A stretch of DNA of 49,376 nucleotides from a virus (IMGVR_UViG_2909251562_000001); one strand, 5' to 3'; positions 1,422 to 21,341 are shown, counted from the first letter of the stretch. Notes: generated from the sequence alone by a model not told the origin. Translations and numbers: made by a program.

Positions 1422-3893
1422 TTAAAAATCAGCCTGACTCGGGATCAGTTTTTGCCAGATAGCTGAAACGTATTTTGCCTGGTAACGAGCGTCATCAAGT
1501 GCATTATGGCGCTCACCTTCGAATGGGATAGCAGTTCTGGCATCGAAGTCTATGGCTTTCCCCAGCTCAACGATTGTGCGTACATCGCGATCGTTGTAGT
1601 AACGCCACGGGCAGGGGATCCCCTGCCGCTCGTATGAACGGCGCAAAATAGTGTTGTCGAAGTTGGCTCCATTTCCCCAGACCTGAACAAAAAATTCACC
1701 GGAGTTTTCGTCGATAAATTCCCGCAATTGTAACAGTGCATCATCTAACGGGATTTCATCGGTCATAATGGCAGATTGCGCTTCGCGTGATTGTTTAAGC
1801 CACCATTTAATGGTGTCCCGATCAATGACTCCGCCAGCAGTTTCCAGATCGATAGTCTTACTAAATTCCGGTCCCATATCTCCGGTTTGCGGATCGAAAA
1901 ATATTGCACCTATTGAGATAATCGGGGCATCGGGATTTTTTCCCATGGTTTCAAGGTCGATCATCAGATGAATCCCCGCTCTGCTGGTGGATGTGAGATT
2001 ATGATGACCGTTCGCCTTAATTAAGGGATCTGACGCCTCGCCAGTTTCACTATCGCTGGCATGATGCTGATTGCCGCCAGTGTTCTCCTTGTGCTGATGC
2101 GCAGTGCCTTCCATTTCCTCCGGATCATTTTCCTGAACTTCAGGCTGATTCTCTCCATCGAATATTTCCTGGTATGTTGCGTCACCCATCACCGCACCAC
2201 AATCAGGGCAGTTGCCGCCACCGCTCTGACCGCAGGCGGTGCAGATCTTTTCCGGTTCCTGTTGCACTACTGGTTCAGGTTGTTTCGTTTCTGGCTCGTT
2301 TTGTTGCGTATTTGGGCTGTTTTGTTCCGCTTTCTGGTCGTTCTGTTCCGTTTCTTGCTGGTTCTGGTTCGCAGAATCGCGGGTCTGGATCCCCTTAACC
2401 CATTTCGGATCATTCGGGTCGCTAATCCCTTCAACAAATTCACCACGTGATACTGCAAGCAGTTCATCGGCGTCAGGCTGGCTGATATTGGCTGCCTGCA
2501 TAATTTTGTTTACTTCGTCAGCGGTAACTTTTACTGACCCTGGTTGTGCGGTCGTGTCAGATGCACCAGTATTTTGTTGTGAACCTGAGTATGTACCGTT
2601 TTTGCGGGCGAAATATTCTTCTTTCGTGATTTCAGTAGCCCCAGCAGACAGCGCCTTATCCAGACCAGAAAGTTTGTTTGCGCGACCGTATTTTTCGCCA
2701 TCCTTGTCGGTGAAGAGGAAGTAGAACGGCCCCTCACGTTCTACAGATGGTTCGACTTCCACTTTGCATTCGGTTTTTTCGTTGTCTGGAATTGCCGTTT
2801 CCACTGCATCAGTTTCTGGTACTGGCGACGAGAGAGTATCAGTTGCGCTCTGATTTGTTCCTTCATCTTCAAACACGCCCTTTGTAGTCAGGTATTCAGT
2901 AATGTATTTGTTCAGTGCCACAGGGTCTTTGTGAATGTCGATCGGACGTTCACGGACAAGGCCAAAAATAGTCTGGCGGTCGTAGCGAAGGGCATCAGGC
3001 TGTTTGCGCATTGATGCCGAGATACGCTTCCAGTCTTCGCGGTCGTTGTCGATAACTTCATTTTTTGCCCAGCGATGGATGCTGCCGTCAATGTTTCCGG
3101 CATCCACATCACCAGGCCAGAGAGCGTAGGCCAGTTCGTCATCCAGTGTTTTCCATGTCTGCTTGTATTCGCGATGAATGGCAGCAATGACCAGGTTGAT
3201 TTTTCCTGTTGAATTTTCAGTGTGCTGTTGATTGGCTCTGGCGCGGGCGAGATCAACAACAGACGTGTATTTTCCGGTTTCCTTGCGTTCACCTTCGCGA
3301 CGTTTTTTCCAGATGCGCATCTCTGCCTGAATTTCGGGCCATTTGGCACCAGGCTTACATTTATGCTTAACCCACCCGATGGCATGCAGCTTAAGCTCCG
3401 GATACATGGCGTTAACTTCTGGCATTTTCATCAACGCTTCAACGATATGTCCGTCGAATGTTGCCATGTCTTCCTGCAACAATTCCTGCGCGCTAATCAC
3501 CATATCAACGGTGATGTTTTCACATGTGTCGAACTTAACCATGACAGCGTTCTGTACTTCAGGGGCCAGCTTGTCAAAAGTGACGTTCATCGGATCTGAT
3601 TCAGTCTCAACCGGGACAAAGGAAGCAGACTCCTCATCCCAGCGGTTTTCCTGCATATATTCAGCATCCCAGGAATCGAGGGCAGGGCGGGGTATACCGG
3701 GTTTATCCTCGCAAACAAGAAATTTATAAGCGCAGTCCTGAGCAGCCGGATAATGTTCCAGGAATTGCCAGTGAAATTTTGCTCGTGCACGGCGTTCGTC
3801 GCCAGCTTCAATGGCTGTGGCTACAGCCACAGCGCCTTCTTCCCTTGTTGCCAGTTCGTCAGGAATAGCGGCGCAAATAAAGACTTTACTCAT
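1422..3893 (-). CDS. large early-region exonuclease (RecE/exodeoxyribonuclease VIII-like), C-terminal DEDDh 3'-5' exonuclease domain
   Basis: 823-aa ORF. C-terminus carries three exonuclease motifs (MIDLETMG; NGANFDNTIL; HNALDDARY). Central segment SRGEFVEGISDPNDPKWVKGIQTRD resembles RecE-family prophage proteins as recalled. Sits where lambdoid recombination genes lie. Confidence 0.7.
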   Translation of the reverse strand: MSKVFICAAIPDELATREEGAVAVATAIEAGDERRARAKFHWQFLEHYPAAQDCAYKFLVCEDKPGIPRPALDSWDAEYMQENRWDEESASFVPVETESDPMNVTFDKLAPEVQNAVMVKFDTCENITVDMVISAQELLQEDMATFDGHIVEALMKMPEVNAMYPELKLHAIGWVKHKCKPGAKWPEIQAEMRIWKKRREGERKETGKYTSVVDLARARANQQHTENSTGKINLVIAAIHREYKQTWKTLDDELAYALWPGDVDAGNIDGSIHRWAKNEVIDNDREDWKRISASMRKQPDALRYDRQTIFGLVRERPIDIHKDPVALNKYITEYLTTKGVFEDEGTNQSATDTLSSPVPETDAVETAIPDNEKTECKVEVEPSVEREGPFYFLFTDKDGEKYGRANKLSGLDKALSAGATEITKEEYFARKNGTYSGSQQNTGASDTTAQPGSVKVTADEVNKIMQAANISQPDADELLAVSRGEFVEGISDPNDPKWVKGIQTRDSANQNQQETEQNDQKAEQNSPNTQQNEPETKQPEPVVQQEPEKICTACGQSGGGNCPDCGAVMGDATYQEIFDGENQPEVQENDPEEMEGTAHQHKENTGGNQHHASDSETGEASDPLIKANGHHNLTSTSRAGIHLMIDLETMGKNPDAPIISIGAIFFDPQTGDMGPEFSKTIDLETAGGVIDRDTIKWWLKQSREAQSAIMTDEIPLDDALLQLREFIDENSGEFFVQVWGNGANFDNTILRRSYERQGIPCPWRYYNDRDVRTIVELGKAIDFDARTAIPFEGERHNALDDARYQAKYVSAIWQKLIPSQADF

Positions 3894-4016
3894 TTTGTTT
3901 TAACCTCATGACAGATTTAAGGATGAACAAATCCCTGCCATTGCTGGCATATAAGAATCAAATCTGATGTATTCATTAAGCTGAATGTCGTATTGTGGCA
4001 GTTATTTTATTACTGC

Positions 4017-4250
4017 TCACCATGACTCTGCTTTTACAGGTAAACCATCACGACCAAGGAAGACTTTAATCATGGTTTCCTTAATACAGTGTTGTGTGGA
4101 AAAATCACGAATATAGAGCCGTTGTTTTTTAATGTTGTTTACCGAAGCAATATATGTTCTTCCTTTATGAATAACATAATCACCGGGAGTCACGCACTGA
4201 CGAGGAATCTCATCAGTTCCGAAGTGATGAGCAATCATAATTATCTCCAT
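4017..4250 (-). CDS. hypothetical small early protein
   Basis: 77-aa ORF downstream (same strand) of the DicF-like sRNA, at the position dicB occupies in Qin-type prophages, but with no recognisable similarity to DicB. Start ambiguous (MEIIM or MIAHH). Confidence 0.45.
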
Positions 4251-4417
4251 TTTTACAAATGAACTTTGTTGATGCGGTGCCTGGTGCCTCCAGGTGACGT
4301 TAACCAGTTAACAATTAACGCCGGATACAGAGAACCCACCCATAACACTGTTTTTGGTTTTAACTGTTCCGCGTGCGCTTAGCCGCATTCACCGCATCAC
4401 AAAATTCACTTTAAAAA

Positions 4418-4469
4418 GGGCGGCAGAGCAGTCACGGAGTAAACTGATACCGCCAAACGCCACCAGAAA
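4418..4469 (-). ncRNA. dicF: DicF-like small regulatory RNA
   Basis: Minus-strand sequence TTTCTGGTGGCGTTTGGCGGTATCAGTTTACTCCGTGACTGCTCTGCCGCCC followed by a T-run closely matches the ~53-nt E. coli DicF sRNA as recalled from memory. Lies in a ~500-bp stretch of the leftward operon with no convincing ORF. Confidence 0.6.
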
Positions 4470-4800
4470 ATTGATAACAGAGGGCGTTGTAGCGGGGTTG
4501 TCACTTAAGCGTATGGTCAACCTGACAACCCGGTGTCCTCAACGGGGAAGGAATAACCCCGCCATACTTACCGCCGCGCCATTTCGCGGATTGCCACAAC
4601 CGGAAGCGCACGGTCGAATTAAATTTAACGACACCGTACAGTGAGACGAACATCGCCGTGCGCTTTCGCGTTATGCCCTGACTTTTCAGGAAAATGCCCT
4701 TTCAGTAAACTGTCAGTGCCGGATGCTCACCCGTGTCCGGCGCACGCACTCCACCTGACCCGTGGAGAACTCCTTAATTACCAACCCTCAGGAGGGTGAA

Positions 4801-5022
4801 ATGACTAGTAAAAATGTAAATATCCAGTTTAACCACGATGTTTCTCCTGCTGGACTTGCGGATGAGCTCACTGCTATAAAAACGGCAATTATGCTACTTG
4901 CTGCTAAGTTGCCTGCGTCATCAAAGCCAGCGGAAATTTGTGACTCATTGCGTAAGATGAATTCAACAAAATGCAATGAGATGGCATCACTTATTGAAAG
5001 TGCAATTGATTTTAATGATTAA
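4801..5022 (+). CDS. hypothetical protein, plus-strand gene embedded in the leftward early operon
   Basis: ATG at 4801 preceded by GGAGGG (4791-4796). 73 aa, Ala/Leu-rich. Converges on and overlaps the 3' end of minus-strand gene 5012..5386 by 11 nt. Confidence 0.5.
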   Translation: MTSKNVNIQFNHDVSPAGLADELTAIKTAIMLLAAKLPASSKPAEICDSLRKMNSTKCNEMASLIESAIDFND

Positions 5023-5386
5023 TCGAAATTTCATGGCTAACTGTAACACTCCCATCTGTGGCGGGATGGTTTAAATCGCTGGGATTAATGCCGCACTCAG
5101 TAAAATGGTTCTTAAGGGGTTCTATCCGAATCCCTTTCTTTTTCATTAACAAGCCAAAACCCTTATCAATGATATCCATTAATTCCAGGAAGTATTTTTC
5201 ATGTAAATCCTGGTTATCAGAGAGCTGCTTCTCTTCGTACAGACCGATAAAGGCACGACGCACGTTACCGGATATAGTATCGATGGTTTCTTTTTCTACG
5301 GTACTCAGGTCAAGAGTCGCCAGTTGGGAACGAACTATATTCGCTGCCATTTCCTGGAATTGCATTGGTAAATCTTTAAATTCCAT
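5012..5386 (-). CDS. hypothetical early protein
   Basis: 124-aa ORF in the leftward early operon; no recognisable motif. Confidence 0.55.
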   Translation of the reverse strand: MEFKDLPMQFQEMAANIVRSQLATLDLSTVEKETIDTISGNVRRAFIGLYEEKQLSDNQDLHEKYFLELMDIIDKGFGLLMKKKGIRIEPLKNHFTECGINPSDLNHPATDGSVTVSHEISINH

Positions 5387-7640: not shown

Positions 7641-8588
7641 ATGAGCAGCAAGCTTCATGGTCTTGTCTGGGAAGGGTGTGCCTTCACCGGCATGATCTTA
7701 TCCAGGGTGGCAGTTATGGCTCGCCTTGCAGATTACAGCAATGACGAAGGTGTGTCATGGCCTGCAGTGGAGACCATTCGTCGTCAGATTGGGGCAAAGA
7801 GTGAATCAACGGTTAAAGCTGCGATAGCAGAACTGGAAAAGAACGGCTGGCTGACGAAGGAGGAACGTAAGGTCGGTGGGCGTAATGAAAGCAATATCTA
7901 CCGTCTTAATGTGGAAAAACTCGAAGCAGCAGCAGCGGCAGCGCGTGAGGCATATAAACCGAAAAGAAAAATTAGCCAGGCAAAAAATGACCCGTCAAAT
8001 ATTGCCCCCTCAACGGTTAACCCATCAAATTTTGATGGATCAACCGTTGATAAAAAACAGTCGGATAGGGGGGCGATGGTTGGCCCCGATCCGTCAGTAT
8101 TAAAACCTGATCCGTCAGATAAAAGATCTTTTCGTCCGGAAGCTTCGCAACCGGACATGCAGACGGCTGAACAGGATTTTTTAACCCGACACCCTGACGC
8201 GGTTGTGTTCAGTGCGAAAAAACGCCAGTGGGGTAGCCAGGAAGATTTAGCGTGTGCGCAGTGGATCTGGGGGCGAATCGTGAGTCTTTACGAGCAGGCC
8301 GCCAGCGATGATGGCGAGATTTCGCGACCGAAAGAACCCAACTGGACCGCATGGGCCAACGACGTGCGCACAATGCGGATGCTGGATGGCAGAACTCACA
8401 GACAAATTTGTGAAATGTTTGGTCGGGTGCAGCGGGATCCATTTTGGGTAAAAAATATCATGAGTCCGTCAAAGCTTCGCGAAAAATGGGATGAACTGGT
8501 TATCCGCCTGGGGCGTTCGTCTGTACAGCGTTGTGTGAATCATATTTCTGAGCCGGATACCGAAATTCCGCCGGGGTTCAGGGGGTAA
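7641..8588 (+). CDS. putative replication initiation protein
   Basis: 315 aa; N-terminal winged-helix-like region; immediately precedes the DnaC-like loader, the usual initiator-loader pair. Confidence 0.6.
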   Translation: MSSKLHGLVWEGCAFTGMILSRVAVMARLADYSNDEGVSWPAVETIRRQIGAKSESTVKAAIAELEKNGWLTKEERKVGGRNESNIYRLNVEKLEAAAAAAREAYKPKRKISQAKNDPSNIAPSTVNPSNFDGSTVDKKQSDRGAMVGPDPSVLKPDPSDKRSFRPEASQPDMQTAEQDFLTRHPDAVVFSAKKRQWGSQEDLACAQWIWGRIVSLYEQAASDDGEISRPKEPNWTAWANDVRTMRMLDGRTHRQICEMFGRVQRDPFWVKNIMSPSKLREKWDELVIRLGRSSVQRCVNHISEPDTEIPPGFRG

Positions 8589-8594
8589 CGGGCC

Positions 8595-9341
8595 ATGAAA
8601 AATATCGCGGCAGGTGGTGTTCTTGAGCGTATCCGTAAGCTGACCCCGCAGCATGTAATCGCGCCGTACCGGACAGTGGACGAGTGGCGCGAGTGGCAAC
8701 TGGCAGAAGGGCGAAAACGTAGCGAGGAGATCAACCGCCAGAATCGCCAGTTGCGGGTGGAAAAAATCCTGAATCGTTCGGGCATCCAGCCTCTGCACAG
8801 CAAATGCTCGTTTGCGAATTATCAGGTGCAGAACGACGGGCAAAAACACGCGCTGAGCCAGGCAAAATCCATCGCTGACGAACTGATGACCGGGTGCACG
8901 AATTTTGTGTTCAGCGGTAAGCCGGGTACCGGAAAGAACCACCTTGCAGCCGCCATTGGCAATCATCTTCTGGCGAAAGGTCGCAGCGTGATTGTGATAA
9001 CGGTGGCTGATGTGATGCTGGCGTTACACAACAGCTACGACAACAAAAACTCAGGCGAAAAATTTTTACAGGGGTTGTGTGATGTTGACCTGCTTGTCCT
9101 GGATGAAATCGGAATGCAGCGGGATACGCGCAACGAGCAGGTCACGCTGAACCAGATAGTCGACCGCAGAACGGCTTCGATGCGTAGTGTCGGAATGCTG
9201 ACGAACCTTAACCACGTAGCGATGAGTACGCTTCTTGGCGAGCGTGTAATGGACCGCATGGTCATGAACGGTGGTCGCTGGGTGAATTTTAACTGGGAGA
9301 GCTGGCGTTCGAATGTCAGACACCTGAGGGTTGTGAAGTAA
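8595..9341 (+). CDS. DnaC-like helicase loader (IstB-type AAA+ ATPase)
   Basis: Walker A GKPGTGKNHLAAAIG and Walker B LLVLDEIG in a 248-aa protein. Confidence 0.85.
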   Translation: MKNIAAGGVLERIRKLTPQHVIAPYRTVDEWREWQLAEGRKRSEEINRQNRQLRVEKILNRSGIQPLHSKCSFANYQVQNDGQKHALSQAKSIADELMTGCTNFVFSGKPGTGKNHLAAAIGNHLLAKGRSVIVITVADVMLALHNSYDNKNSGEKFLQGLCDVDLLVLDEIGMQRDTRNEQVTLNQIVDRRTASMRSVGMLTNLNHVAMSTLLGERVMDRMVMNGGRWVNFNWESWRSNVRHLRVVK

Positions 9342-9355
9342 TTTCAGGAGGATTT

Positions 9356-9751
9356 ATGGCGAAACCTTTTTCTCTCGAACAGCGGGAAGAGCTGAAGGCA
9401 CGAATTATCGGGTTGGTACGCAAAAATGAACGCATGACGATGTCGCAGCTGGAGAGAGCGACAGGGGCAGGCTGGCACTCGGTCCGACGCTGCCTTGTGG
9501 ATGTGCTGGCTTGTGGCGATTTATACATGTCCGGGGAATACGGTGTTTTTGCATCAGAGCAGGCGTATCGCGTATGGCGTAAGACACCGGAGAAAAGAAC
9601 CGACCTGACACTGATTCGAAAGTTACCAGACGGAGAAATACGCCGCTACGACAGGAGCCAGAACATAATCTGTCGCGAGTGCCGGAAGAGTGAGGTTATG
9701 CAGCGAGTGCTGGCGTTTTATCAGGGTAATTTTCAGGAGGTGATGGCGTGA
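9356..9751 (+). CDS. hypothetical protein (possible winged-helix)
   Basis: 131-aa ORF, good coding context, overlaps the next gene by 4 nt. Confidence 0.55.
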   Translation: MAKPFSLEQREELKARIIGLVRKNERMTMSQLERATGAGWHSVRRCLVDVLACGDLYMSGEYGVFASEQAYRVWRKTPEKRTDLTLIRKLPDGEIRRYDRSQNIICRECRKSEVMQRVLAFYQGNFQEVMA

Positions 9752-10044
9752 GGGTGAGAGTCTATATCGCCGGTCCAATGACCGGGTATAAAAATTTCAA
9801 CCGTGAGGCGTTCCACAATGCGGAAGAGGAACTGAAACGGGAAGGGCATACCGTCTTAAACCCGGCAGTACTTCCGGACGGGCTGACACAGCCGCAGTAC
9901 ATGGATATCTGCATGGCGATGATTCGTTGCGTGGATGCGATTTACATGCTGCAAGGCTGGCAGCGGTCAGCAGGCGCTAAGGCGGAACTGGCGCTGGCGG
10001 AGAAGCTGGGGCATGCAGTTATTTTCCAGGAGGAGGTACAGTGA
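9748..10044 (+). CDS. DUF4406 / nucleoside 2-deoxyribosyltransferase-like protein
   Basis: 98 aa, MRVRVYIAGPMTGY N-terminus typical of this Rossmann-like family (recalled). Confidence 0.55.
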   Translation: MRVRVYIAGPMTGYKNFNREAFHNAEEELKREGHTVLNPAVLPDGLTQPQYMDICMAMIRCVDAIYMLQGWQRSAGAKAELALAEKLGHAVIFQEEVQ

Positions 10045-10325
10045 ATATCGACGCAACAATGACGATTGGTACGGCCCTCAATACGGGGCTGGCGCTTCTT
10101 GGTTGGTGCTACGTCATGTTCTGCTCATGGCGGTGGCTGTCACTGATGTTACTGAAAAAATGGAATAAACGCTGTAAACAGACGCAGCGGCAGAAGGCAA
10201 TGAATGCGTTTTTTGAGACCTTCGATATTGACAGTATGGAGCCAGGAGAGCCAGCTCGCGTGATTAGCAGAGGAGACGTTGTAATTCTTGTATACCGGAG
10301 TGAAGAGAAATATGAGCGAAATTAA
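10041..10325 (+). CDS. small membrane protein
   Basis: 94 aa with a hydrophobic segment (LALLGWCYVMFCSWRWLSLML); overlaps the previous gene by 4 nt. Confidence 0.5.
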   Translation: MNIDATMTIGTALNTGLALLGWCYVMFCSWRWLSLMLLKKWNKRCKQTQRQKAMNAFFETFDIDSMEPGEPARVISRGDVVILVYRSEEKYERN

Positions 10326-10424
10326 CTATCAGGCACTGCGTGAAGAAGAGAAAGCATAATCCAAATCTGAATAATTAAATTCAGCACTGTAAATAAAATT
10401 TAATCCTTAACCGGAGGAGTATCT

Positions 10425-10637
10425 ATGTTAAATACACAAAAAAACATTAACGCGGAAAAATATAACGAGTGGGTGAAAAAATTTTCTGAGCAGATTTTTA
10501 AAATTACTGGCGACGAGAATGCGGCAAAAAGTGAATTAGAACCATGGACACCTGAAGGAGCCAACCCAAATTATTGCTGGTGGGATGTTGATCCAGTTGA
10601 TGCTGCAAATGAAGCCATGAGTTACCACAACGATTAA
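10425..10637 (+). CDS. hypothetical small protein (AT-rich, first gene of the accessory island)
   Basis: 70 aa; GGAGGAG Shine-Dalgarno before the ATG; followed by a GC-rich stem-loop. Confidence 0.55.
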   Translation: MLNTQKNINAEKYNEWVKKFSEQIFKITGDENAAKSELEPWTPEGANPNYCWWDVDPVDAANEAMSYHND

Positions 10638-10646
10638 TGTCAGGAG

Positions 10647-10664
10647 GCCGCCCGAAAGGGCGGC
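10647..10664. terminator. GC-rich stem-loop between convergent genes
   Basis: GCCGCCC-GAAA-GGGCGGC (7-bp stem, GAAA loop) between the stops of 10425..10637 (+) and 10676..11230 (-). No clear U-tract on either strand. Confidence 0.35.
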
Positions 10665-10675
10665 TGTTCCGCTGT

Positions 10676-11230
10676 TCAATTATCTAAAATTGTGCTAAAT
10701 CTTTTTATTACCATTAAGAACGTTATAACAGTGATAAAAAAGGATGCATAGGATAAAAAGCTAACAATATATGCAGGTGCGCGAAAATACCATTTCATTA
10801 AATCTACTGCATTGTCAGGCAGGAAATATATTATCACTGAAAATATAACCAATACTATTGAAGTTAATATTGCATAAGCGACGTTGTGGCATAACTGCTC
10901 ATATATGGTTTTGTTAGTGTTTAATGATATCAATTTGTCTCGGGATTTGTTTCCTTCAATTATGTCTGATATCTTAGTGATGGTTTTTTGTTTTTGTTCA
11001 TAAATCATTATTACTGCACTCATTAATAGTGCTGTTGTAATAGCCCCGAAGTTAACGAAGACGGAAGCAATTGCCGGTTTCATTATTCCGTATGTCCAGC
11101 ACAGAACGAAAGAAAGAGATAACGGAACAATAAAATGTACGATAATGTCGCTCATCAACATTGTTCCACGCTGATCTGACATTGTTTTGTAGTGTTTTAT
11201 TATTACACCCAGCACATTTATTTTATTCAT
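10676..11230 (-). CDS. four-helix integral membrane protein (candidate effector of a two-gene module)
   Basis: 184 aa with four long hydrophobic segments. Its ATG overlaps the upstream gene's stop (ATGA). Very AT-rich. Confidence 0.7.
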   Translation of the reverse strand: MNKINVLGVIIKHYKTMSDQRGTMLMSDIIVHFIVPLSLSFVLCWTYGIMKPAIASVFVNFGAITTALLMSAVIMIYEQKQKTITKISDIIEGNKSRDKLISLNTNKTIYEQLCHNVAYAILTSIVLVIFSVIIYFLPDNAVDLMKWYFRAPAYIVSFLSYASFFITVITFLMVIKRFSTILDN

Positions 11231-12159
11231 ATAATCACCCCTTTGTTTCCGCTATGCAGTTCTAACAATATATCATTAGAAAGGTTTTTTATCGTGTCAT
11301 GAAGTGCTGTTAGATCAGGTATGCCTGTTAATGGGTCGATTTTTAAATCATTATCATCTAACTCTGCGGAAATTCCTTTTTTTAGTATGGTCTCATAATT
11401 GAAAACGACAGTCCGACTGCCGAGTTGTAAGCTTACTTTTATTGCATCACATTTATCTTCAATAATCTCAATGATGTTTCCTATATTCTTGTTTCTTAAA
11501 TCCCTGAAACTTCCGAACATGCCATTGTTTGCTTTTATTATTAAGTCTGTCTTGATGTTTGTTTTGTTTTGACCAAAGGAATCAGCAATGTCTTTTGGTG
11601 CTTTATATCCTTGAGCCTTAATTTGTTTTAATTCGGAATTGAGAATATATTGAGGGATTTTCTTATGATGTAATGGATTGATTCTTGCTTCGAGTTGAAA
11701 TTTGTTTTTTAGATATTCAGTGATAGAATCAGAAAGGACACCTCGAGCAGAAATATTATCGCAAGAGTGGAATGCAATAATTCCTTCTTCAAGGGTGTCT
11801 GGTAGGTATATTAAAATATAACGTTCTTTGAGTGTTACATCATAAGCAGTTGTCCTATAGTGGATTTTTTTGAGTTTTACATCTTTTATTTCACTGCTTT
11901 CTCCATATTTCCCAACTTTTATATAACCATATATAATTTTCTTTGAGTTATCAAAGTGAAGTTTAGCGTGTTGTTCCAGAGATATTTTAGTTTTGGATAC
12001 GCCAAACTCGATAGGGGTGTTTTTATATAGAGTAAAATAATCAACAAAAAGTTCATATGCCGTTTTTTTATTACTTAAACCCAATTCATTAAGTTTTTTG
12101 CTGGCTCGACTGCCTTTATGGGTCAATACGCGGAATGAATAGAAATTAACGCTGTGCAT
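11227..12159 (-). CDS. 310-aa protein of unknown function (candidate sensor/enzyme partner)
   Basis: Long AT-rich ORF, Lys/Ile/Asn-rich, no motif I can recognise by eye; translationally coupled to the downstream membrane protein. Confidence 0.7.
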   Translation of the reverse strand: MHSVNFYSFRVLTHKGSRASKKLNELGLSNKKTAYELFVDYFTLYKNTPIEFGVSKTKISLEQHAKLHFDNSKKIIYGYIKVGKYGESSEIKDVKLKKIHYRTTAYDVTLKERYILIYLPDTLEEGIIAFHSCDNISARGVLSDSITEYLKNKFQLEARINPLHHKKIPQYILNSELKQIKAQGYKAPKDIADSFGQNKTNIKTDLIIKANNGMFGSFRDLRNKNIGNIIEIIEDKCDAIKVSLQLGSRTVVFNYETILKKGISAELDDNDLKIDPLTGIPDLTALHDTIKNLSNDILLELHSGNKGVII

Positions 12160-12585
12160 GAAAAGTCCTTTTGAACATATAGGAGTATACTAGAACATAA
12201 ATAGATGCAATGCATAAAGGAAAAGCTACCGCAGGGCGAACTCACCCACCGATAACTCTTAACTGGTTGTTTGTAAAAGATAATACATAAATTTGGGTCT
12301 GTGTAAAGAGGTAAGCATCGTCAGGGCAAGGGAGATGTGTTAGGCAATATTGGTAAAATTTACGTTGAGGATAAAAACGGTTTGCGGGAAAAGGAGAGTT
12401 AAGTAGAATTGCTGCGGGTGCTTGAGGCTATCTGTCTCAGGCATGAACACCAAAAGGCAGATAGAGAAAAGCCCCAGTTAACATTACGCGTCCTGCAAGA
12501 CGCCTAACATTAATCTGAGGCCCAATCTATGTCTCACAAATGTAGGTTAGCCTCTTACGTGCCGAAAGGCAAGGAGAAGCAGGCT

Positions 12586-12741
12586 ATGAAGCAGCAAAAG
12601 GCGATGTTAATCGCCCTGATCGTCATCTGTTTAACCGTCATAGTGACGGCACTGGTAACGAGGAAAGACCTCTGCGAGGTACGAATCCGAACCGGCCAGA
12701 CGGAGGTCGCTGTCTTCACAGCTTACGAACCTGAGGAGTAA
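12586..12741 (+). CDS. hokD: Hok/Gef-family toxin (HokD/RelF-like)
   Basis: MKQQKAMLIALIVICLTVIVTALVTRKDLCEVRIRTGQTEVAVFTAYEPEE, 51 aa, matches the Hok family signature and E. coli RelF/HokD as recalled. Structured leader upstream. Confidence 0.85.
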   Translation: MKQQKAMLIALIVICLTVIVTALVTRKDLCEVRIRTGQTEVAVFTAYEPEE

Positions 12742-12808
12742 GAGACCAGGCGGGGGCGAAATCCCTCGCCACCTCTGATGTGTCAGGCATCCTCAACGCA
12801 CCCGCACT

Positions 12809-12831
12809 TAACCCGCTTCGGCGGGTTTTTT
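12809..12831 (+). terminator. rho-independent terminator (copy 1 of a 23-bp repeat)
   Basis: TAACCCGCTTCGGCGGGTTTTTT: hairpin plus T-run downstream of hok. Confidence 0.7.
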
Positions 12832-12832
12832 A

Positions 12833-12879
12833 TTGGTTGACAAAATTATGAATATGCACCAATATCTTGGTTGACAAAA
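12833..12879 (+). promoter_or_regulatory. tandem 13-bp direct repeats, each with a TTGACA -35 hexamer
   Basis: TTGGTTGACAAAA at 12833-12845 and again at 12867-12879, just upstream of the cassette's first gene. Confidence 0.4.
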
Positions 12880-12914
12880 GTCGTTTTTTGCACGGATTAG
12901 GCGGAGAAGTGTCT

Positions 12915-13508
12915 ATGCAGAACCATCCATTCCCTTGGGAGTTCTTTCCTGAGTTAACAGAGGAGCGTTTAACCATTATAGCTGAGGAGTTGCTCAGGAT
13001 ACAGGATATTACTCATGAGTTATTGTCATCGCCCTATGATGATAATTACACTCGTGGTGGTTGTACATTTGGGCGTCAGCGGCAGGCGTTGCTACAAATG
13101 TGCGTACGAAAGACATATGACTGGTTAAGACTACTTAATCCTGGCATGGATCTTACGTTTTCAATTGGGAATGTCCCTATTCGTTTCTTTACTGATGACG
13201 CAGATAACCCCAAGAAACGCGGTTTTTTCAAAAGAAATGATGCTGATCGACTCTTTGAGTCAGAGGAGACTACTCCAACTATGCATCGCTTTGTGGTTGA
13301 AAAGCCTGAATTTGAAGGCGAGGGTGGTAGAGTCATTTTTAATGGCTATAACGTGTTTGGTGAGATCGTGTCAACTTGGACATATGGTGCGGACCGTGTT
13401 GTTATGCTGAACTCTGTCGATGATGTACCTCCAGCACCGGTACCTATCGAACTAGAACCTATCAGTGCGTCTAAGACTGAGAAGGAAAAGAAACAAAATA
13501 GCAAATAG
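12915..13508 (+). CDS. 197-aa protein of unknown function (candidate toxin/effector)
   Basis: ATG 12915 preceded by GGCGGAG; no recognisable motif; 10 nt upstream of the XRE/ImmA gene. Confidence 0.6.
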   Translation: MQNHPFPWEFFPELTEERLTIIAEELLRIQDITHELLSSPYDDNYTRGGCTFGRQRQALLQMCVRKTYDWLRLLNPGMDLTFSIGNVPIRFFTDDADNPKKRGFFKRNDADRLFESEETTPTMHRFVVEKPEFEGEGGRVIFNGYNVFGEIVSTWTYGADRVVMLNSVDDVPPAPVPIELEPISASKTEKEKKQNSK

Positions 13509-13518
13509 TGGGTGAAAT

Positions 13519-14640
13519 GTGTTTAACGGTACTAATTTAAGACTTGCTCGTCTGTATCACGAGCTATCTCTGGAGCAGGTTGCTGAGAAGGTTGAAAAAA
13601 CACGCCAGTATGTACAGCGACTGGAGTCTGGTTCAGCTACTCCATCCCCAGAGCTTATAAATAAATTAGCCGAGGTTTTGCGCGTGAAGCCCGCCTTTTT
13701 CGAAGGGCAGGAACATTCTCCTGTTAATGAAGAGATTGTACATTTTCGTAAACGCGCCTCGACAAGGATGTCAACGAAGCTATCAACACTCGCTAAGGCT
13801 GAGTTTTATCGTCGTTTTATTGATGTATTTGAAGATAACCTTAATTTGTCACCTGTTCGATTTCCTGAATTTCGTGTCCATACACAAGAAGATATCGAGC
13901 GAGCGGCAGAAAAATGTCGTATTGAGTGGGGCTTAGGCTTTGGCCCAATTGAAAATATGACTCGCCTTGCCGAGAAACTTGGGGCGTTTGTTACTTCATT
14001 TGACTCCGTTTCGGATGAAGTAGATGCACTGTCTGTTCCTCTACGAAGGCCTTTTATTGTTCGAAATACAGCTAAAAATTCACCTTGTAGGCAACGCTTT
14101 GATATTGCTCATGAGGTTGCCCATTTGATTCTTCATGAAGGAATTTCTACTGGGGATAGATTAACTGAATCCCAGGCAAACCGTTTTGCCTCTGCTCTGT
14201 TGCTTCCCAGAACGTCGATGGCGAAATATTTTCCAAGACCTGTGGGGGGGAGGATAAATTGGCAGGGACTAAGCCAATTTAAGTTGACATGGAAAGTAAG
14301 TAAGGCTGCCATTGTTTACAGGGCTCATCAATTAGGACTTTTGACTGATGAGCAGTACAGAACTGCATTTATGGGGTTGAAACGGAAAGGGGAAGCTATT
14401 GATGAAAAAGAAGATTATCTAATCCCTCATGAGCGTCCTGAGTTATTCCGTCGGGCTTTATCGTTTTTATTTGAAGAGTTAGGATACGACCCACAGCGTA
14501 TAGCTGATGAAATGGATATAGAAGTGGACATTTTTTATGAGTTAGCAGGAGATGATCTTCCTGCGGTTCATGAACTGCCAGGAAGTGGTGATGTTGTTTC
14601 ACTACAATCTTACCGAACTCTTAGAGGCAAAATTCACTAG
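13519..14640 (+). CDS. XRE-family HTH fused to ImmA/IrrE-type zinc metallopeptidase (COG2856-like)
   Basis: N-terminal HTH (LSLEQVAEKVEKTRQYVQRLESG) and HEXXH motif HEVAHLILH in a 373-aa protein. Confidence 0.8.
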   Translation: MFNGTNLRLARLYHELSLEQVAEKVEKTRQYVQRLESGSATPSPELINKLAEVLRVKPAFFEGQEHSPVNEEIVHFRKRASTRMSTKLSTLAKAEFYRRFIDVFEDNLNLSPVRFPEFRVHTQEDIERAAEKCRIEWGLGFGPIENMTRLAEKLGAFVTSFDSVSDEVDALSVPLRRPFIVRNTAKNSPCRQRFDIAHEVAHLILHEGISTGDRLTESQANRFASALLLPRTSMAKYFPRPVGGRINWQGLSQFKLTWKVSKAAIVYRAHQLGLLTDEQYRTAFMGLKRKGEAIDEKEDYLIPHERPELFRRALSFLFEELGYDPQRIADEMDIEVDIFYELAGDDLPAVHELPGSGDVVSLQSYRTLRGKIH

Positions 14641-14643
14641 GCA

Positions 14644-14666
14644 TAACCCGCTTCGGCGGGTTTTTT
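14644..14666 (+). terminator. rho-independent terminator (copy 2 of the 23-bp repeat)
   Basis: Identical TAACCCGCTTCGGCGGGTTTTTT immediately after the XRE/ImmA gene. Confidence 0.7.
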
Positions 14667-14741
14667 GTTTTACGTATTCTGGTTTACAATCTACAGGCCA
14701 GCCTGAACAACTGGCACCTGCTGCGCCAGCAGAGAAAACCG

Positions 14742-15014
14742 ATGGCGCACAATACCAAACATCACAATTCTGATACCGACCTTGCCAGCTGGCACGGGCG
14801 GCGTTCTCATACATTCAAATATGACTGGTACCAGCATGCTCCATGCACTGAAGAACAGGCCGAATGGCTGATTCAGAACTACCGCAGGCGTGGGTACGAC
14901 TTTCAGAAAGACCTCAGCCCTGACTTCCGACACTGGATAATTTCTGTCAGGCTCCCTTATTCCGAACGCCCACCGCGTCCGTCCCGCACATTCCAGCAAC
15001 GCATCTGGAGGTAA
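14742..15014 (+). CDS. hypothetical small protein
   Basis: 90-aa ORF abutting the DUF968 gene (stop and start adjacent); start uncertain. Confidence 0.4.
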   Translation: MAHNTKHHNSDTDLASWHGRRSHTFKYDWYQHAPCTEEQAEWLIQNYRRRGYDFQKDLSPDFRHWIISVRLPYSERPPRPSRTFQQRIWR

Positions 15015-15015
15015 C

Positions 15016-16062
15016 GTGCGGGTATTACTTCGACCTGTTCTGGTGCCGGAACTTGGGGTGGTTATCGTTAAGCCAGGTCGTGAATCCATGCAGGTATTCC
15101 ATAACGGCAGAGTGCTGGTTGAACCGGAGCCAAAAAGCATGCGCGGTCTGCCGTCCGGAGTCGTTCCTGCTGTTCGCCAGCCGCTGGCGGAGGATAAATC
15201 ATTACTGCCATTTTTCAGCGATGAGCGGGTGATTCGTGCTGCTGGTGGTGCTGGTGCATTGTCTGACTGGCTGTTACGCCACGTTAAATCCTGCCAGTGG
15301 CCTCATGGTGACTATCATCACAGTGAAACCGTCATACATCGTTATGGTACCGGCGCAATGGTGTTGTGCTGGCACTGCGACAACCAGCTGCGTGACCAGA
15401 CATCCGAATCACTCGAGCAACTTGCTCATCAAAACCTGTCAGCATGGATGATTGACGTCATACGCCATGCAATGAATGGCACGCAGGAGCGGGAATTATC
15501 GCTGGCTGAATTATCTTGGTGGGCAACCATAAATAACGTAGCGGACGCACTACCGGAGACGGTATTACGTCGTTCGCTGGGATTGCGCGCGGAAAAAATT
15601 CGCTCAGTATACCGCGAGAGCGACATCGTGCCGGGAGAGCAGACTGCCACCAGCATACTGAAGCAGCGCACAAAAAATCTTGCGCCGCTGCCTCACGCCC
15701 ACCAGCAAAACCCGCCACAGGAAAAGACGGTGGTCAGCATTGCTGTTGATCCGGAGTCTCCGGAATCTTTCATGAAACGACCTAAACGTCGCCGCTGGGT
15801 TAACGAGAAATACACACGCTGGGTGAAGACACAGCCGTGTGCGTGTTGTGGTAAGCCAGCCGACGATCCCCATCACCTGATTGGTCATGGTCAGGGCGGA
15901 ATGGGGACAAAATCTCACGATATTTTTACGCTACCGCTGTGTCGGGAGCATCACAACGAGCTTCATGCGGATCCGCTGGCGTTCGAAGAAAAGCATGGTT
16001 CTCAGGTTGATTTAATTTTTCGTTTTCTTGATCACGCCTTTGCAACTGGCGTGCTTGGGTAA
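15016..16062 (+). CDS. DUF968-family phage protein with C-terminal Cys/His (HNH-like) motif
   Basis: 348 aa; C-terminal CACCGKPADDPHHLIGHG...CREHHNELH; resembles Qin YdfU-type proteins (recalled). Confidence 0.65.
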   Translation: MRVLLRPVLVPELGVVIVKPGRESMQVFHNGRVLVEPEPKSMRGLPSGVVPAVRQPLAEDKSLLPFFSDERVIRAAGGAGALSDWLLRHVKSCQWPHGDYHHSETVIHRYGTGAMVLCWHCDNQLRDQTSESLEQLAHQNLSAWMIDVIRHAMNGTQERELSLAELSWWATINNVADALPETVLRRSLGLRAEKIRSVYRESDIVPGEQTATSILKQRTKNLAPLPHAHQQNPPQEKTVVSIAVDPESPESFMKRPKRRRWVNEKYTRWVKTQPCACCGKPADDPHHLIGHGQGGMGTKSHDIFTLPLCREHHNELHADPLAFEEKHGSQVDLIFRFLDHAFATGVLG

Positions 16063-16074
16063 AAGAGGTGACTG

Positions 16075-16434
16075 ATGCTCATAGATTTGGTTTTACCTTA
16101 CCCGCCGACGGTGAACACTTACTGGCGACGCCGTGGCAGCACATATTTTATCTCGGAGGAGGGAAAGCGTTATCGCCGTGATGTGGCGCTTATTGTTCGC
16201 CAGCAGCGACTGAAATTAAAGCTGTCCGGACGGCTGGCGATAAAGGTGATTGCAGAGCCACCGGATAAACGTCGTCGTGACCTGGACAATATCCTGAAAG
16301 CACCACTGGATGCACTGACACATGCGGGGTTGCTTATCGACGACGAGCAGTTTGATGAAATCAATATTGTGCGCGGTCAGCTCGTTCCTGGTGGGCGACT
16401 GGGGATAAAAATCACAGAATTGGGGTGCGCATGA
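16075..16434 (+). CDS. rusA: RusA-family Holliday junction resolvase
   Basis: 119 aa, MLIDLVLPYPPTVNTYW N-terminus and conserved acidic residues (RRDLDNILKAPLDAL). Confidence 0.85.
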   Translation: MLIDLVLPYPPTVNTYWRRRGSTYFISEEGKRYRRDVALIVRQQRLKLKLSGRLAIKVIAEPPDKRRRDLDNILKAPLDALTHAGLLIDDEQFDEINIVRGQLVPGGRLGIKITELGCA

Positions 16435-17120
16435 ATAACCAGTATTTACAGTTTGTGCGTGAGCAGCTCATTATCGCCACCGCTGATTTGAGTGGGGCAA
16501 CAAAAGGTCAGCTTGAAGCCTGGCAGGAGAATGCCATGTTTGATACAGGGCGTTACAGGCGTAAAAAAATCCGGTACCGAGATGAAGTGACCGGAAAAAT
16601 GATTACGCGGGATAATCCACCAATCCCGGGGAAACAATCGCTGGCGAAGGGGACGTCAATTCCTCTGGTCAGTCCGGTTGAGTTTTCGACATCATCGTGG
16701 CGGCGGGCTGTTCTGTCTCTTGAAGAACATCATAAAGCCTGGTTGTTATGGTGTTACAGCGGGAGTATTTGTTGGGAATATCAGATCGCGATAACACAGT
16801 GGGCGTGGAATGAATTTAATACTCAATCCGGTACCAGAAAAATTGCAGGGAAAACGCAGGAACGCCTGAAAAAATTAATCTGGCTGGCGGCGCAGGCAGT
16901 AAAAGCAGAACTTTTTGGTGGGGAAGGTTATGAATACCAGGAGCTGGCATTACTGGCGGGAGTGACAACTAAAAACTGGTCCAAAACATTTACTCGTCAC
17001 TGGGTTGCAATGAAACACATTTTTCACCGACTGGATAGTGAGGCTTTATTGTTTGTAATGAGAACACGTTCAAAACAAAAGGCGGCATTTTCAAAGCAAA
17101 GTGTTGCAAAAGTAGATTGA
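16425..17120 (+). CDS. late-gene antiterminator Q-like protein
   Basis: 231 aa, overlaps the rusA stop; positioned just upstream of a terminator and the lysis genes. Confidence 0.65.
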   Translation: MRMNNQYLQFVREQLIIATADLSGATKGQLEAWQENAMFDTGRYRRKKIRYRDEVTGKMITRDNPPIPGKQSLAKGTSIPLVSPVEFSTSSWRRAVLSLEEHHKAWLLWCYSGSICWEYQIAITQWAWNEFNTQSGTRKIAGKTQERLKKLIWLAAQAVKAELFGGEGYEYQELALLAGVTTKNWSKTFTRHWVAMKHIFHRLDSEALLFVMRTRSKQKAAFSKQSVAKVD

Positions 17121-17330: not shown

Positions 17331-17406
17331 GGCCCTTTAGCTCAGTGGTGAGAGCGAGCGACTCATAATCGCCAGGTCGCTGGTTCAAATCCAGCAAGGG
17401 CCACCA
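17331..17406 (+). tRNA. tRNA with CAU anticodon (Ile2 lysidine-type or Met)
   Basis: 76 nt with encoded CCA; 7-bp acceptor stem GGCCCTT/AAGGGCC; anticodon loop CUCAUAA; closely resembles E. coli ileX as recalled. Confidence 0.85.
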
Positions 17407-17407
17407 A

Positions 17408-17484
17408 CCGTCACCAGTTCATCAGGAAAGAGCGTCAACCCTTTAAGTTGAGTGTGCGAGGTTCGAGTCCCCGGTGGCGGTCCA
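17408..17484 (+). tRNA. atypical tRNA-like gene (anticodon loop CCUUUAA, possibly Lys-UUU)
   Basis: 77 nt ending in CCA; acceptor CCGTCAC/GTGGCGG (one G-U pair); T-arm with TTCGAGT loop; anticodon stem TCAAC/GTTGA. Position 33 is C rather than U and the 5' nucleotide is C. Confidence 0.4.
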
Positions 17485-17486
17485 GT

Positions 17487-17562
<76 letters not shown>

Positions 17563-17565
17563 TAT

Positions 17566-17640
<75 letters not shown>

Positions 17641-17941: not shown

Positions 17942-18107
17942 TTCATTTTTTTTTCATGGCTCGCTACGGCGGGCCTTTTTCATATCCTCGCCACACCCGG
18001 CGCATATCACATCAAATAACGCCGCGCAAAAGGCATCTGCGGGTGCCTTTGACGGGGTGTTTTTACGGGCCGCTGGTGGCCCTTTTTTATTTACAGGAGA
18101 AAAACGT

Positions 18108-18497
18108 ATGTCTGAACCCTTATCCGGTTCCGGCACGGCTGCGGCGCTCGGTGGGGCGACGGTGTACGGGCTGTTTACCGGAACGGATTTCGGGATTGTG
18201 TTTGGTGCGTTCGCCGGGGCGTTATTTGTGGCAACGATGCCGCAGGCGCTTTCAGTCTGGCGTGTGGTGGCGCATTTTTTGGTGTCGTTTATCGTCGGCG
18301 TGCTGGGGGCGCGCGTGCTGTCAGCCTGGATTGCATCAAAAACAGGGTATGACGGTACATCGGCAGATGCGCTGTGTGCGGTGCTGGTATCGGTGGTGTC
18401 GGTGAAGATTCTGTCGTTCATCCACCAGCAGGATATTGCATCGCTGGTGTCCGGTGTGTTCTCCCGTCTGCGGGGTGGAGGCGGTAATGTTAAGTAA
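18108..18497 (+). CDS. putative holin (multi-pass membrane protein)
   Basis: ATG 18108 with AGGAGA Shine-Dalgarno; about 129 aa with three hydrophobic segments; first gene of the lysis cassette. Confidence 0.6.
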   Translation: MSEPLSGSGTAAALGGATVYGLFTGTDFGIVFGAFAGALFVATMPQALSVWRVVAHFLVSFIVGVLGARVLSAWIASKTGYDGTSADALCAVLVSVVSVKILSFIHQQDIASLVSGVFSRLRGGGGNVK

Positions 18498-19402: not shown

Positions 19403-20974
19403 TTACTGAGAGCTCAGATCAACTTTCCAGGGCAACAGATCGCGTACCCGGTTTGCCGGCCAGTCCTGGATATGTTCAATGACGTAGCGCAGCCACTTTT
19501 CTGGCTCCACATTGTTCAGACGGCATGTGCCGATCAGCGAGTACAACACCGCCGCATGTTCACCACCGCTGTCGGAACCCGCGAACATCCACTTTTTCCG
19601 GCCTACGGCCACTCCCCGTAAGGCGTTCTCTGCGATGTTGTTGTCGATTTCCACCCAGCCATTACTGCAGTACACGTTCAGTGCATCCCACTGTTTCAGC
19701 AGGTATGCGAACGCTTTTGCCGTATCTGAGTGACGCGACAGTGTTTTCATCTGTTGCTGTATCCAGTCATACAGTGACTGCATCAGTGGCGCGGCTCTGG
19801 TTTTTCTTGCCGCCAGACGCTGTTCTGCTGAACAGCCCCGGACCTCTGCCTCGATGGCATACAGTTCACCGATACGCTGCAGGGCTTCCGTGGTGATGTC
19901 GGTGGGCGCTCTTGCATGCACATCGTGGATTTTTCTCCGGGCATGAGCCATACACGCGGCTTCCGTTATTCTGCCGGATTCGTATAACGCCCGGTAACCA
20001 CCGTAAGCATCGGCCTGAAGCACACCGCTGTAACCGGCCAGGTGATTTTGTGGATGGATACCTTTCCGGTCCGGACTGTACGCGAACCAGACCGCCGGGG
20101 GCATCTGTGAACCGGCGTTACGGTCATCACGGACGTAGACCCACAGCCGGGCTGTCCGGGTTTTACCGCTGCCCGGCTCCTGGACCGGGACGGGGATATC
20201 ATCAGCATGGACTTTACCGGGCATCAGCACATACTGGCGCAGGACGTCATACAGCGGCTCCAGTAGTTCAGCAACGGCACCTGTCCAGCGCCCCAGTGTG
20301 GCACGGCTCAGCTCCACACCCTGACGGCGGTATATCTCTGACTGGCGGTATAACGGCAGATGGTCTGCATATTTTCCGGTGACGACATGGGCCAGGAGCC
20401 CCGCTCCGGCATAACTGCGTGCAATGGGTTTTGAAGGTACTGGTGCCTGCACGATATGGTCGCACCGACAACAGGCCAGTTTCGGACGTTGTGTTTCGAT
20501 AACCTTAAAGGCGCTGCTGATAAGCTCCAGTTGCTCTGACACATCACATCCCAGAGAACTGAGTTCACCACCACAGGCAGGACAGCATTCCTCTTCCGGC
20601 CGGATAACCCGGGTTTCACGGGGAAGTGAGGCCGGTAACGGTTTACGGGCTGAAGACTGGCGCAGGGCGGATGGCAGTACCGGGTCATATTGCTCACCCA
20701 GCGTTTCCGCCATTTCTTCCTGAAGTGCGCTGATTCGCTCCTGTGCTTCCTGTATCTGCCGTTCGGTTTTTGCACGAAGTTTTTCTGAGCTTTTACCGAA
20801 CTGCATACGTTGCAGTTTCGCAACCAGCGCCTTCAGCCGGTTGATTTCGGAAGCATAAGCCGCCACCCGCTGTGAGAGCAGGCGGTTGTATTCAGCCATC
20901 TGGCGGATGGTGTCCTGTTGCGTCTGCAACAGTGCCCGCAGGCGGGCGTTCTCATGAGCAAGTGAGGTGTCCAT
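19403..20974 (-). CDS. tnpC: IS66-family transposase TnpC
   Basis: 523 aa with N-terminal coiled-coil/leucine-zipper region, Cys cluster (CPACGG...CRC) and DDE-type core typical of IS66 transposases. Confidence 0.9.
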
Positions 20975-20993
20975 ATCCTCACTTTACAACGGG

Positions 20994-21341
20994 TTATATG
21001 CGGATTCCAGCGCGTTCCGTTCGTTTCGGGTGCTTCCAGTTGATACCTTCAAGAAGCATGGATAACTGAGCCGGAGTAAGGTGCACCTTGCCGTCACGGG
21101 TGACTGGCCAGACGAAGCGGCCCCGCTCCAGGCGTTTGGTGAAGAGGCACAGTCCGTCACTGTCAGCCCACAACACTTTTATCTGGTCACCCCGGCGTCC
21201 GCGGAAGATGAACAGGTGTCCGGAGAACGGGTCATCCTTCAGGACGTTCTGAACTTTTGATGCCAGGCCGTTAAAGCCATTTCGCATATCGGTGATACCT
21301 GCAACCAGCCAGATACGCGAACCTGCAGGGAGAGATATCAT
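20994..21341 (-). CDS. tnpB: IS66 Orf2 (TnpB) accessory protein
   Basis: 115 aa, MISLPAGSRIWLVAGITDMRNGFNGL... matches the conserved IS66 Orf2 family. Confidence 0.85.
   Translation of the reverse strand: MISLPAGSRIWLVAGITDMRNGFNGLASKVQNVLKDDPFSGHLFIFRGRRGDQIKVLWADSDGLCLFTKRLERGRFVWPVTRDGKVHLTPAQLSMLLEGINWKHPKRTERAGIRI

Follow-up and report, generated by a model that had tools for sequence, protein, structure and literature searches.

A cargo site with two exchangeable slots around hok/sok in a lambdoid prophage, and a probable RexAB-type gene pair within it

What does a lambdoid prophage keep between its replication genes and its Q gene, and do the genes found there form one AT-rich island or several units that come and go independently? 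The question is raised by IMGVR_UViG_2909251562_000001, a viral DNA of 49,376 nucleotides (nt), referred to here at its full length as the window, in which a first-pass annotation had marked about 4.3 kb (10330-14670) as an AT-rich, hypervariable island of stacked defense and toxin genes. The window is a Rac/lambdoid-type prophage, and the island is an accessory cargo site with the replication genes on one side and the DUF968-RusA-Q block on the other. Along it we found orf70 (+), gene B (−), gene A (−), mok/hok (+), rmrT (+), and rmrA (+), in the mixed orientation that had been described. We consider it likely that the site consists of two exchangeable slots around a hok/sok locus and that it holds three autonomous modules, one of which, the minus-strand pair of A and B, is an abortive-infection system of the RexAB type.

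The guanine-plus-cytosine (GC) content of 10330-14670 is 0.399, against 0.515 for the whole window and 0.521 and 0.509 for the flanks on the replication side (7641-10325) and the DUF968-Q side (14742-17120), respectively. When the sliding-window check suggested by the first-pass annotation was run, the island clearly differed from its flanks and proved to be the lowest-GC 4.3-kb stretch of the window: just 2 of 901 sliding windows of 4341 bp were lower, and both were 50-nt shifts of the same place. The marked AT-richness that had been ascribed to the island as a whole is, however, confined to its left 2 kb, which contain orf70 and the pair. This core (10326-12340) has a GC content of 0.346, the minimum among all 2-kb windows and about 3 standard deviations under the mean, with values of 0.328 for gene A (0.28 at third codon positions) and 0.324 for gene B. 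The genes rmrT and rmrA are at 0.43, and the hok/sok module (12416-12834), at 0.523, is not AT-rich. In distant hosts, too, the pair is richer in AT than the sequences around it.

We then surveyed variability by comparing a 7.2-kb query around the island with 5426 complete Escherichia coli genomes. These 7.2 kb are 100% identical to the chromosome of the enterotoxigenic E. coli (ETEC) strain TW11681 and of four other ETEC isolates. Some part of the query was matched in 5009 genomes, and at least 80% of it in only 5, with one more genome in which the match was split at the record origin; the whole arrangement thus exists in 5 or 6 of the 5426 genomes, and the locus is as hypervariable among related prophages as had been proposed. 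The pair cassette was present in 36 of the genomes, with both genes every time and in two alleles (at least 98% and about 76% nucleotide identity), while the RosmerTA allele of the window (the rmrT-rmrA cassette, described below) was found in 22. In a presence/absence matrix of 35 loci, the pair and RosmerTA assorted independently.

Comparison of annotated neighbor loci resolved what had been seen as a single island into two variable slots that flank a conserved hokD. The first slot, from the replication-side genes to hok, is filled by orf70 and the pair, by a ParA-family gene, or by DUF4014/DUF551 genes; the second, from hok to the 90-amino-acid (aa) open reading frame (ORF) and DUF968, holds RosmerTA, rem, a 393-nt ORF, or nothing. 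In ETEC O6-type strains, as seen in E. coli 99-3165 (locus L003, 1647-2970), a ParA-family gene lies to the left of hok, which is N-terminally truncated; these strains keep RosmerTA at 99.9% identity.

The edges of the slots coincide with structured sequences. Pairwise BLAST comparisons placed breakpoints at 10640/10663, at 12362/12363, and at 12826-12831 and 14641-14644, the last two falling in the two copies of a terminator repeat; those at 12826-12831 were seen in four other prophages. The leftmost breakpoint lies at a GC-rich hairpin (10643-10670) between the convergent orf70 and B, which folds with −21.8 kcal/mol on the plus strand (z score, −3.2) and −19.0 kcal/mol on the minus strand and bounds the pair cassette on its left. 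Behind hok (12810-12827) and rmrA (14645-14662) stand canonical terminators whose stems are identical. Each is part of a 26-nt direct repeat on the plus strand, the first copy of which (12809-12834) ends the hok module and, as judged from breakpoints and junction alignment, marks the left junction of RosmerTA, while the second (14644-14669), identical to it at 25 of 26 positions, marks the right junction. The terminators said to separate the genes of the island are therefore present after hok and rmrA, whereas the hairpin between orf70 and B lacks a T-run. Strain IrN (locus L005) has a single copy of the repeat, with the hok-side flank to its left and the DUF968-side flank to its right. It therefore represents the empty site, and RosmerTA is a clean insertion or deletion of 1835 bp.

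The locus is thus mosaic, with its modules meeting at hairpins and terminators, an arrangement that implies the exchange of whole cassettes by recombination between related prophages. Each module would be a promoter-terminator unit of its own, and the mosaicism would be cassette-wise because the shared terminator sequences act as recombination joints. The site recalls the gene order of K-12 Qin-type prophages (the relBE-hokD / rem-hokD region), in which a conserved hokD anchor likewise lies upstream of rem/ydfU (DUF968)-rusA-Q and the neighboring slot is filled by toxin or defense cargo that differs across prophages. Unlike that region, the window has an intact sok RNA and mok, and its slots hold the RexAB-like pair and RosmerTA, not relBE and rem.

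Which genes occupy the anchor and the slots? The hok/mok/sok locus (12416-12741, plus strand) comprises the sok/leader region (12416-12591) and a mok frame (12529-12741) that encloses hok (12586-12741). The hok product matched Pfam HOK_GEF (E = 3e-23) and is annotated as hokD in RefSeq, sok scored 118.6 bits with Rfam RF01794 (gathering score, 59), and nearly every locus compared has the module at 86-100% identity. Judged by these matches, the locus is a complete hok/mok/sok type I toxin-antitoxin (TA) system and the conserved anchor between the two slots.

In the second slot, rmrT (12915-13508, plus strand; phrog_5786) encodes 197 aa from the RefSeq start, in a frame that is open from 12867, and matched the PADLOC profile for RmrT (PDLC03929; E = 7.4e-93) over positions 1-197 of 198. 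After a gap of 10 nt on the same strand, rmrA (13519-14640) matched RmrA (PDLC03943; E = 8.2e-201) over positions 1-368 of 370, and its product combines an XRE helix-turn-helix domain (Pfam HTH_3, 1.5e-12) with an ImmA/IrrE (M78) zinc-peptidase domain (Peptidase_M78, 8.3e-17) in which the HExxH motif reads HEVAH. The XRE/ImmA cassette, which the first-pass annotation had described correctly and left without a name, as it had the minus-strand pair, is by these profile matches RosmerTA: RmrT is assigned as the toxin and RmrA as the antitoxin or regulator. RosmerTA has been shown to protect against phages, and deletion of its antitoxin proved impossible (Millman et al. 2022; bioRxiv 10.1101/2022.05.11.491447). 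Anti-phage activity and the relief of RmrT toxicity by RmrA were published for a family member other than this allele, and the copy in the window may act likewise. Strong full-length matches, the domains of the antitoxin, and adjacent same-strand genes all agree with the known system, from which we found no structural difference; here it forms a 1.8-kb cassette within a prophage, bounded by a duplicated terminator. The view of the island as a place for stacked defense and toxin cargo is accordingly borne out by a validated defense system and a full type I TA system, next to a pair that is best read as RexAB-type.

Are genes A and B functional at all? Gene A (11227-12159, minus strand; WP_000556394) encodes a basic, soluble protein of 310 aa (isoelectric point, 9.2), and gene B (10676-11230, minus strand; phrog_15250; WP_001033795) encodes a protein of 184 aa with four transmembrane (TM) helices. 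A ribosome-binding site, AAGGA, stands 6 nt before the ATG of A at 12159, and a consensus scan identified a candidate sigma-70 promoter (TTTACA-16-TATTAT; 10 of 12 matches) for the A-B operon at 12280-12307 on the minus strand. With a candidate promoter of its own and an orientation against early-right transcription, the pair could be expressed from the repressed prophage. Neither protein matched Pfam (E ≤ 0.01), NCBIfam, or PADLOC v2; both belong to PHROGs families of unknown function and are hypothetical proteins in RefSeq, and their close homologues, found in Enterobacterales only, are all annotated as hypothetical.

This lack of database annotation would be expected if the AT-rich stretch were a compositional accident or a decaying remnant with nonfunctional minus-strand ORFs, an explanation to which two loci with disrupted copies of the pair (L034 and L040) and a frameshift variant in Salmonella, discussed below, could also be added. 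It is effectively refuted by the conservation of the pair, and we regard it as highly improbable. Full-length A and B, with many residues that never vary, are conserved throughout Enterobacterales and outside that order, and the AlphaFold2 model of B, four long helices, is confident (predicted local distance difference test [pLDDT], 86). All intact loci that were examined, the most diverged at 28% identity for A and 38% for B, share the 4-nt overlap (ATGA) of the A stop codon with the B start codon, and a B-family homologue lay immediately downstream in all six sampled relatives of A at 20-26% identity (hmmsearch E values of 3e-12 to 9e-40), so that gene order and overlap are kept to about 20% identity.

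A profile search of 1.84 billion cluster representatives recovered 581 relatives of A, nearly all of 300-330 aa; ten distant ones, when scanned, matched no Pfam or PADLOC family. Hydropathy placed the TM segments of B at about residues 25-47, 55-77, 117-137, and 151-175, and the K/R-rich N terminus and TM2-TM3 loop suggest an N-in/C-in topology. The second helix is invariant in the B family and carries the motif VNFGAITTALLMSAV..DQK.

What kind of system, then, is the pair? No phage-exclusion system has been known for longer than Rex. The lambda system is defined by the exclusion of superinfecting phage (classically T4 rII), for which both genes are needed, and by loss of membrane potential. 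As references for the lambda proteins, we used Pfam RexA (PF15969) and RexB (PF15968) and the structure of RexA (PDB 8TWQ). A is predicted to adopt a RexA/RdgC-type two-domain fold, and its best fold match in a PDB library current to 2026 was RexA. In a Foldseek search of BFVD, uncharacterized phage proteins of the same length came first, followed by RdgC-like proteins, and the rank-2 matches of A and of B were proteins of the same uncultured phage, ctylc9. Like lambda rexAB, the pair is a prophage two-gene operon in which the gene for the large protein (279 aa for rexA) precedes that for the small one (144 aa for rexB): a basic, soluble protein of about 300 aa with a RexA/RdgC fold is followed directly, in the same operon, by a small membrane protein with four TM helices, and transcription is possible independently of the lytic genes. 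The proposed logic, in which a sensor activates a membrane effector, is also the same. The two operons differ in that A and B are 31 and 40 aa longer than their lambda counterparts, in that A runs 4 nt into B, while 15 nt lie between rexA and rexB, and in location, as the pair lies in a nin-like cargo region, divergent from hok, and rexAB lies next to cI in the immunity region.

Several observations weigh against assigning the pair to the RexAB type. At the sequence level, Pfam RexA and RexB gave no match to the pair (E ≤ 0.01), a profile of A searched against PDB sequences did not retrieve 8TWQ, and reciprocal hmmsearch comparisons of the A and RexA families were not significant in either direction. 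With hhalign, the two families aligned collinearly but weakly (probability, 2-13%; scores, 22-30); the match narrowly exceeded all 21 shuffled or reversed controls and is not counted as homology. The AlphaFold2 model of A is of medium quality (mean pLDDT, 68): the prediction is good for residues 1-165 and the C-terminal helix but drops below 50 over residues 165-260, so that mainly the N-terminal half supports the match in fold, and lambda RexA was not among the top 50 Foldseek matches of A in BFVD. B showed no significant structural or profile match to RexB (hhalign), in BFVD (Foldseek), or to RexBpp, and a four-helix membrane protein is a generic architecture. Finally, the commonest Salmonella variant of A (P0295; 475 contigs) is annotated as a protein of 276 aa that starts in an alternative frame (MNFLLIILLF...; compare 11919-12159 of the window), which implies a frameshift near the N terminus of A in many Salmonella genomes; the gene may be decaying in part of its range or may use a different start.

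In two recent studies, one of them that of Sucellos (bioRxiv 10.1101/2024.07.02.601686), RexAB-type systems were recognized by predicted structure and gene-pair architecture and not by Pfam or BLAST. From IMG/VR we recovered rexABpp of Pseudomonas putida prophage P1 (PP_5643/PP_5644) by means of a published primer sequence; for RexApp, HHpred gave 98% probability to RexA. The sizes and TM spacing of RexABpp closely match those of A and B, whereas profile searches with this single query sequence, which likewise missed lambda RexA, found no sequence similarity to the pair. The genes rexApp and rexBpp also differ from A and B in lacking the 4-nt overlap and in being located downstream of a CI-like repressor gene.

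Sucellos (SclA/SclB), encoded by cassette 68 of the superintegron of Vibrio cholerae N16961, immediately upstream of VCA0373, has a RexAB-like structure and no Pfam match, requires both genes, and produces an abortive-infection phenotype; it has its own promoter, SclB is predicted to be a TM pore, and homologues are found preferentially in prophages, often of Salmonella (bioRxiv 10.1101/2024.07.02.601686). According to DefenseFinder, about 98% of S. Enteritidis PT1/PT4 isolates have Sucellos, which PADLOC does not report (PMC13656390). By description, A and B resemble it in being a two-gene cassette with RexAB-like predicted structures and no Pfam RexA or RexB match. Their distribution fits as well, circumstantially: the cluster of A at ≥90% identity contains hundreds of Salmonella sequences, serovar Enteritidis included, and the largest A and B clusters come from Salmonella enterica. 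On these grounds of description and distribution, not sequence, the pair probably is the family that DefenseFinder calls Sucellos. None of the 20 cluster representatives of the A family whose source names were checked came from Vibrio, and Salmonella and Enterobacter also have a second subfamily of A-like proteins (P0108, 308 aa), to which Sucellos could correspond instead. It is possible, though doubtful, that the pair is a separate, unnamed RexAB-type lineage of sensor plus pore, not Sucellos, marked in A by an MH..x.Y.xR N terminus and G..YG and in B by the VNFGAITTALL..DQK helix. If so, a RexA-fold sensor with a four-TM effector would constitute a broad abortive-infection superfamily with at least three sequence-unrelated branches.

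Two other kinds of system were considered and rejected. Kiwa, which combines a four-TM protein of about 190 aa (KwaA) with a soluble protein of about 310 aa (KwaB, DUF4868), is superficially similar, but its gene order is reversed, neither PADLOC KwaA/KwaB nor Pfam DUF4868 matched, and the fold of A is that of RexA and not of Kiwa. For a Hailong-type nucleotidyltransferase with a channel, A gave no nucleotidyltransferase match in Pfam or PADLOC, and its best PDB fold match was RexA.

Does the pair serve defense, or does it serve the element that carries it? The genomic contexts bear on this question. The family spans at least 581 clusters at 50% identity, in lambdoid, P2-like, myovirus-like, and filamentous prophages, on small Col plasmids, and in defense islands; all 26 IMG/VR loci are predicted proviruses. 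In Enterobacter prophages the pair occupies the same slot between the replication genes and Q, and elsewhere it lies inside a tail module or beside integrases. In a P2-like prophage of Yersinia enterocolitica (locus L015, 4069-9544), it directly follows gpA, a position that is a known defense hotspot, and is followed by genes for an AAA ATPase and a 742-aa S8 peptidase, which may be another defense system. A distant pair on the metagenome contig SRR22824311_60216 (locus L045, 1-8981) has an MmeI-type methyltransferase/restriction enzyme with a PLD-helicase on one side and PemK, CBS/DUF4268, EVE, and DprA-like genes on the other, a setting that is a classical defense island.

In the filamentous Pseudomonas phage PfAC16 (locus L050, 412-1883), the A/B family is represented by ORF1 and ORF2, which overlap by 4 nt and lie directly beside the repressor gene, mirroring the lambda rexAB-cI arrangement. 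Such a position would suit a role in the prophage life cycle, in which A modulates recombination or the lysogeny-lysis switch and B is an accessory anchor in the membrane or excludes superinfecting phage by keeping their DNA out. A shares its predicted fold with RdgC as well as RexA, and the bias that lambda RexA gives to the bistable switch does not depend on RexB (PMC11077077). However, the pair is also found in a restriction-modification/toxin island, beside transposases, and on a 5.7-kb Col plasmid, settings in which there is no lysogeny switch, and the strict co-inheritance of A with B across about 20% identity speaks for a function that cannot do without the membrane partner. We therefore regard a dedicated life-cycle role as unlikely.

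The plasmid in question, the Col-type mobilizable plasmid EBP3064_p2 of Serratia proteamaculans (locus L049, with the pair at 3690-5143), contains little beyond mob, rep, a RelE/ParE TA system, and the pair. Together with the proximity of the pair to hok/sok in E. coli prophages and its layout as a small, translationally coupled two-gene operon, this would fit an addiction module, in which B is a membrane toxin restrained by A and stabilizes a prophage or plasmid without any part in phage defense. In the validated analogue RexABpp, however, overexpression of the A protein activates the toxicity of B and does not neutralize it (PMC12894663), and the gene for the large protein A comes before that for B, just as rexA precedes rexB in lambda, an order that fits a sensor followed by an effector better than an antitoxin with a small toxin. 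Many TA systems are defense systems, so that this explanation overlaps with the one we prefer; as a pure addiction module, the pair seems to us quite improbable.

For the RexAB-type abortive-infection system that we favor, the following mechanism is proposed by analogy with lambda RexAB, RexABpp, and Sucellos. A would probably be a dimeric DNA-binding sensor of the RexA/RdgC fold that senses a nucleic-acid or replication intermediate of the infecting phage and then activates B. B, located in the inner membrane, would oligomerize into a pore through which the membrane potential collapses, and the infected cell would stop growing or die before the invader replicates. We infer that the pair may be expressed in the lysogen, that A may bind DNA and B form a pore, and that the pair may act against phages. 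Within the site as a whole, hok/mok/sok would stabilize the element, and RosmerTA would add a second abortive layer.

The surroundings of the cargo site are those of a lambdoid prophage. To the left, a CI-like repressor gene, an O-like replication gene, and a DnaC-like gene are followed by DUF977, DUF4406, and DUF4752 and then by the island; to its right lie the 90-aa ORF, DUF968 (ydfU-like), RusA, Q, three tRNA genes, and the lysis genes. At the left end of the island, orf70 (10425-10637, plus strand) is a small acidic ORF that matched phrog_4659 (E = 1.4e-50), a family of unknown function, and had no match in Pfam, NCBIfam, or PADLOC. In the module matrix, one locus (L006) has orf70 and no pair, which makes orf70 an independent module.

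Further along the window, the three tRNA genes (17331-17637) are situated directly 3' of Q, and tRNA genes downstream of Q are also found in many Stx/lambdoid phages. A complete IS66-family element (19403-22018, minus strand), encoding a 225-aa helix-turn-helix protein, a 115-aa TnpB_IS66, and a 523-aa DDE_Tnp_IS66, lies just downstream of the holin gene (18057-18497) and may disrupt the lysis module, which would leave the prophage defective. Two convergent tail-fiber-assembly genes (Caudo_TAP; 45881-46411, plus strand, and 46440-46973, minus strand) adjoin an ORF for a tail-fiber C terminus (gp37_C; 46976-47719, minus strand), a layout that resembles an invertible host-range segment of the Mu G or e14 Pin type. 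At the right end of the provirus, a gene for a class I S-adenosylmethionine-dependent methyltransferase (48382-49050, minus strand) lies within another AT-rich stretch (GC content, about 0.44) and may be further cargo.

RosmerTA and hok/sok are known systems and the island is ordinary for lambdoid prophages; it is the pair that is probably a new or newly recognized member of the RexAB/Sucellos kind. The locus offers a nucleotide-level view of how defense cassettes are exchanged at shared terminators, for which the insertion or deletion of RosmerTA with its 26-nt repeat is the clearest example. In clinical genomes of ETEC and Salmonella, assignment of the pair replaces two "hypothetical" annotations. 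Recognized as RexAB-type, the pair would provide a compact and mobile family, with about 580 clusters and a strict two-gene layout, in which to compare how a DNA-binding sensor gates a membrane pore.

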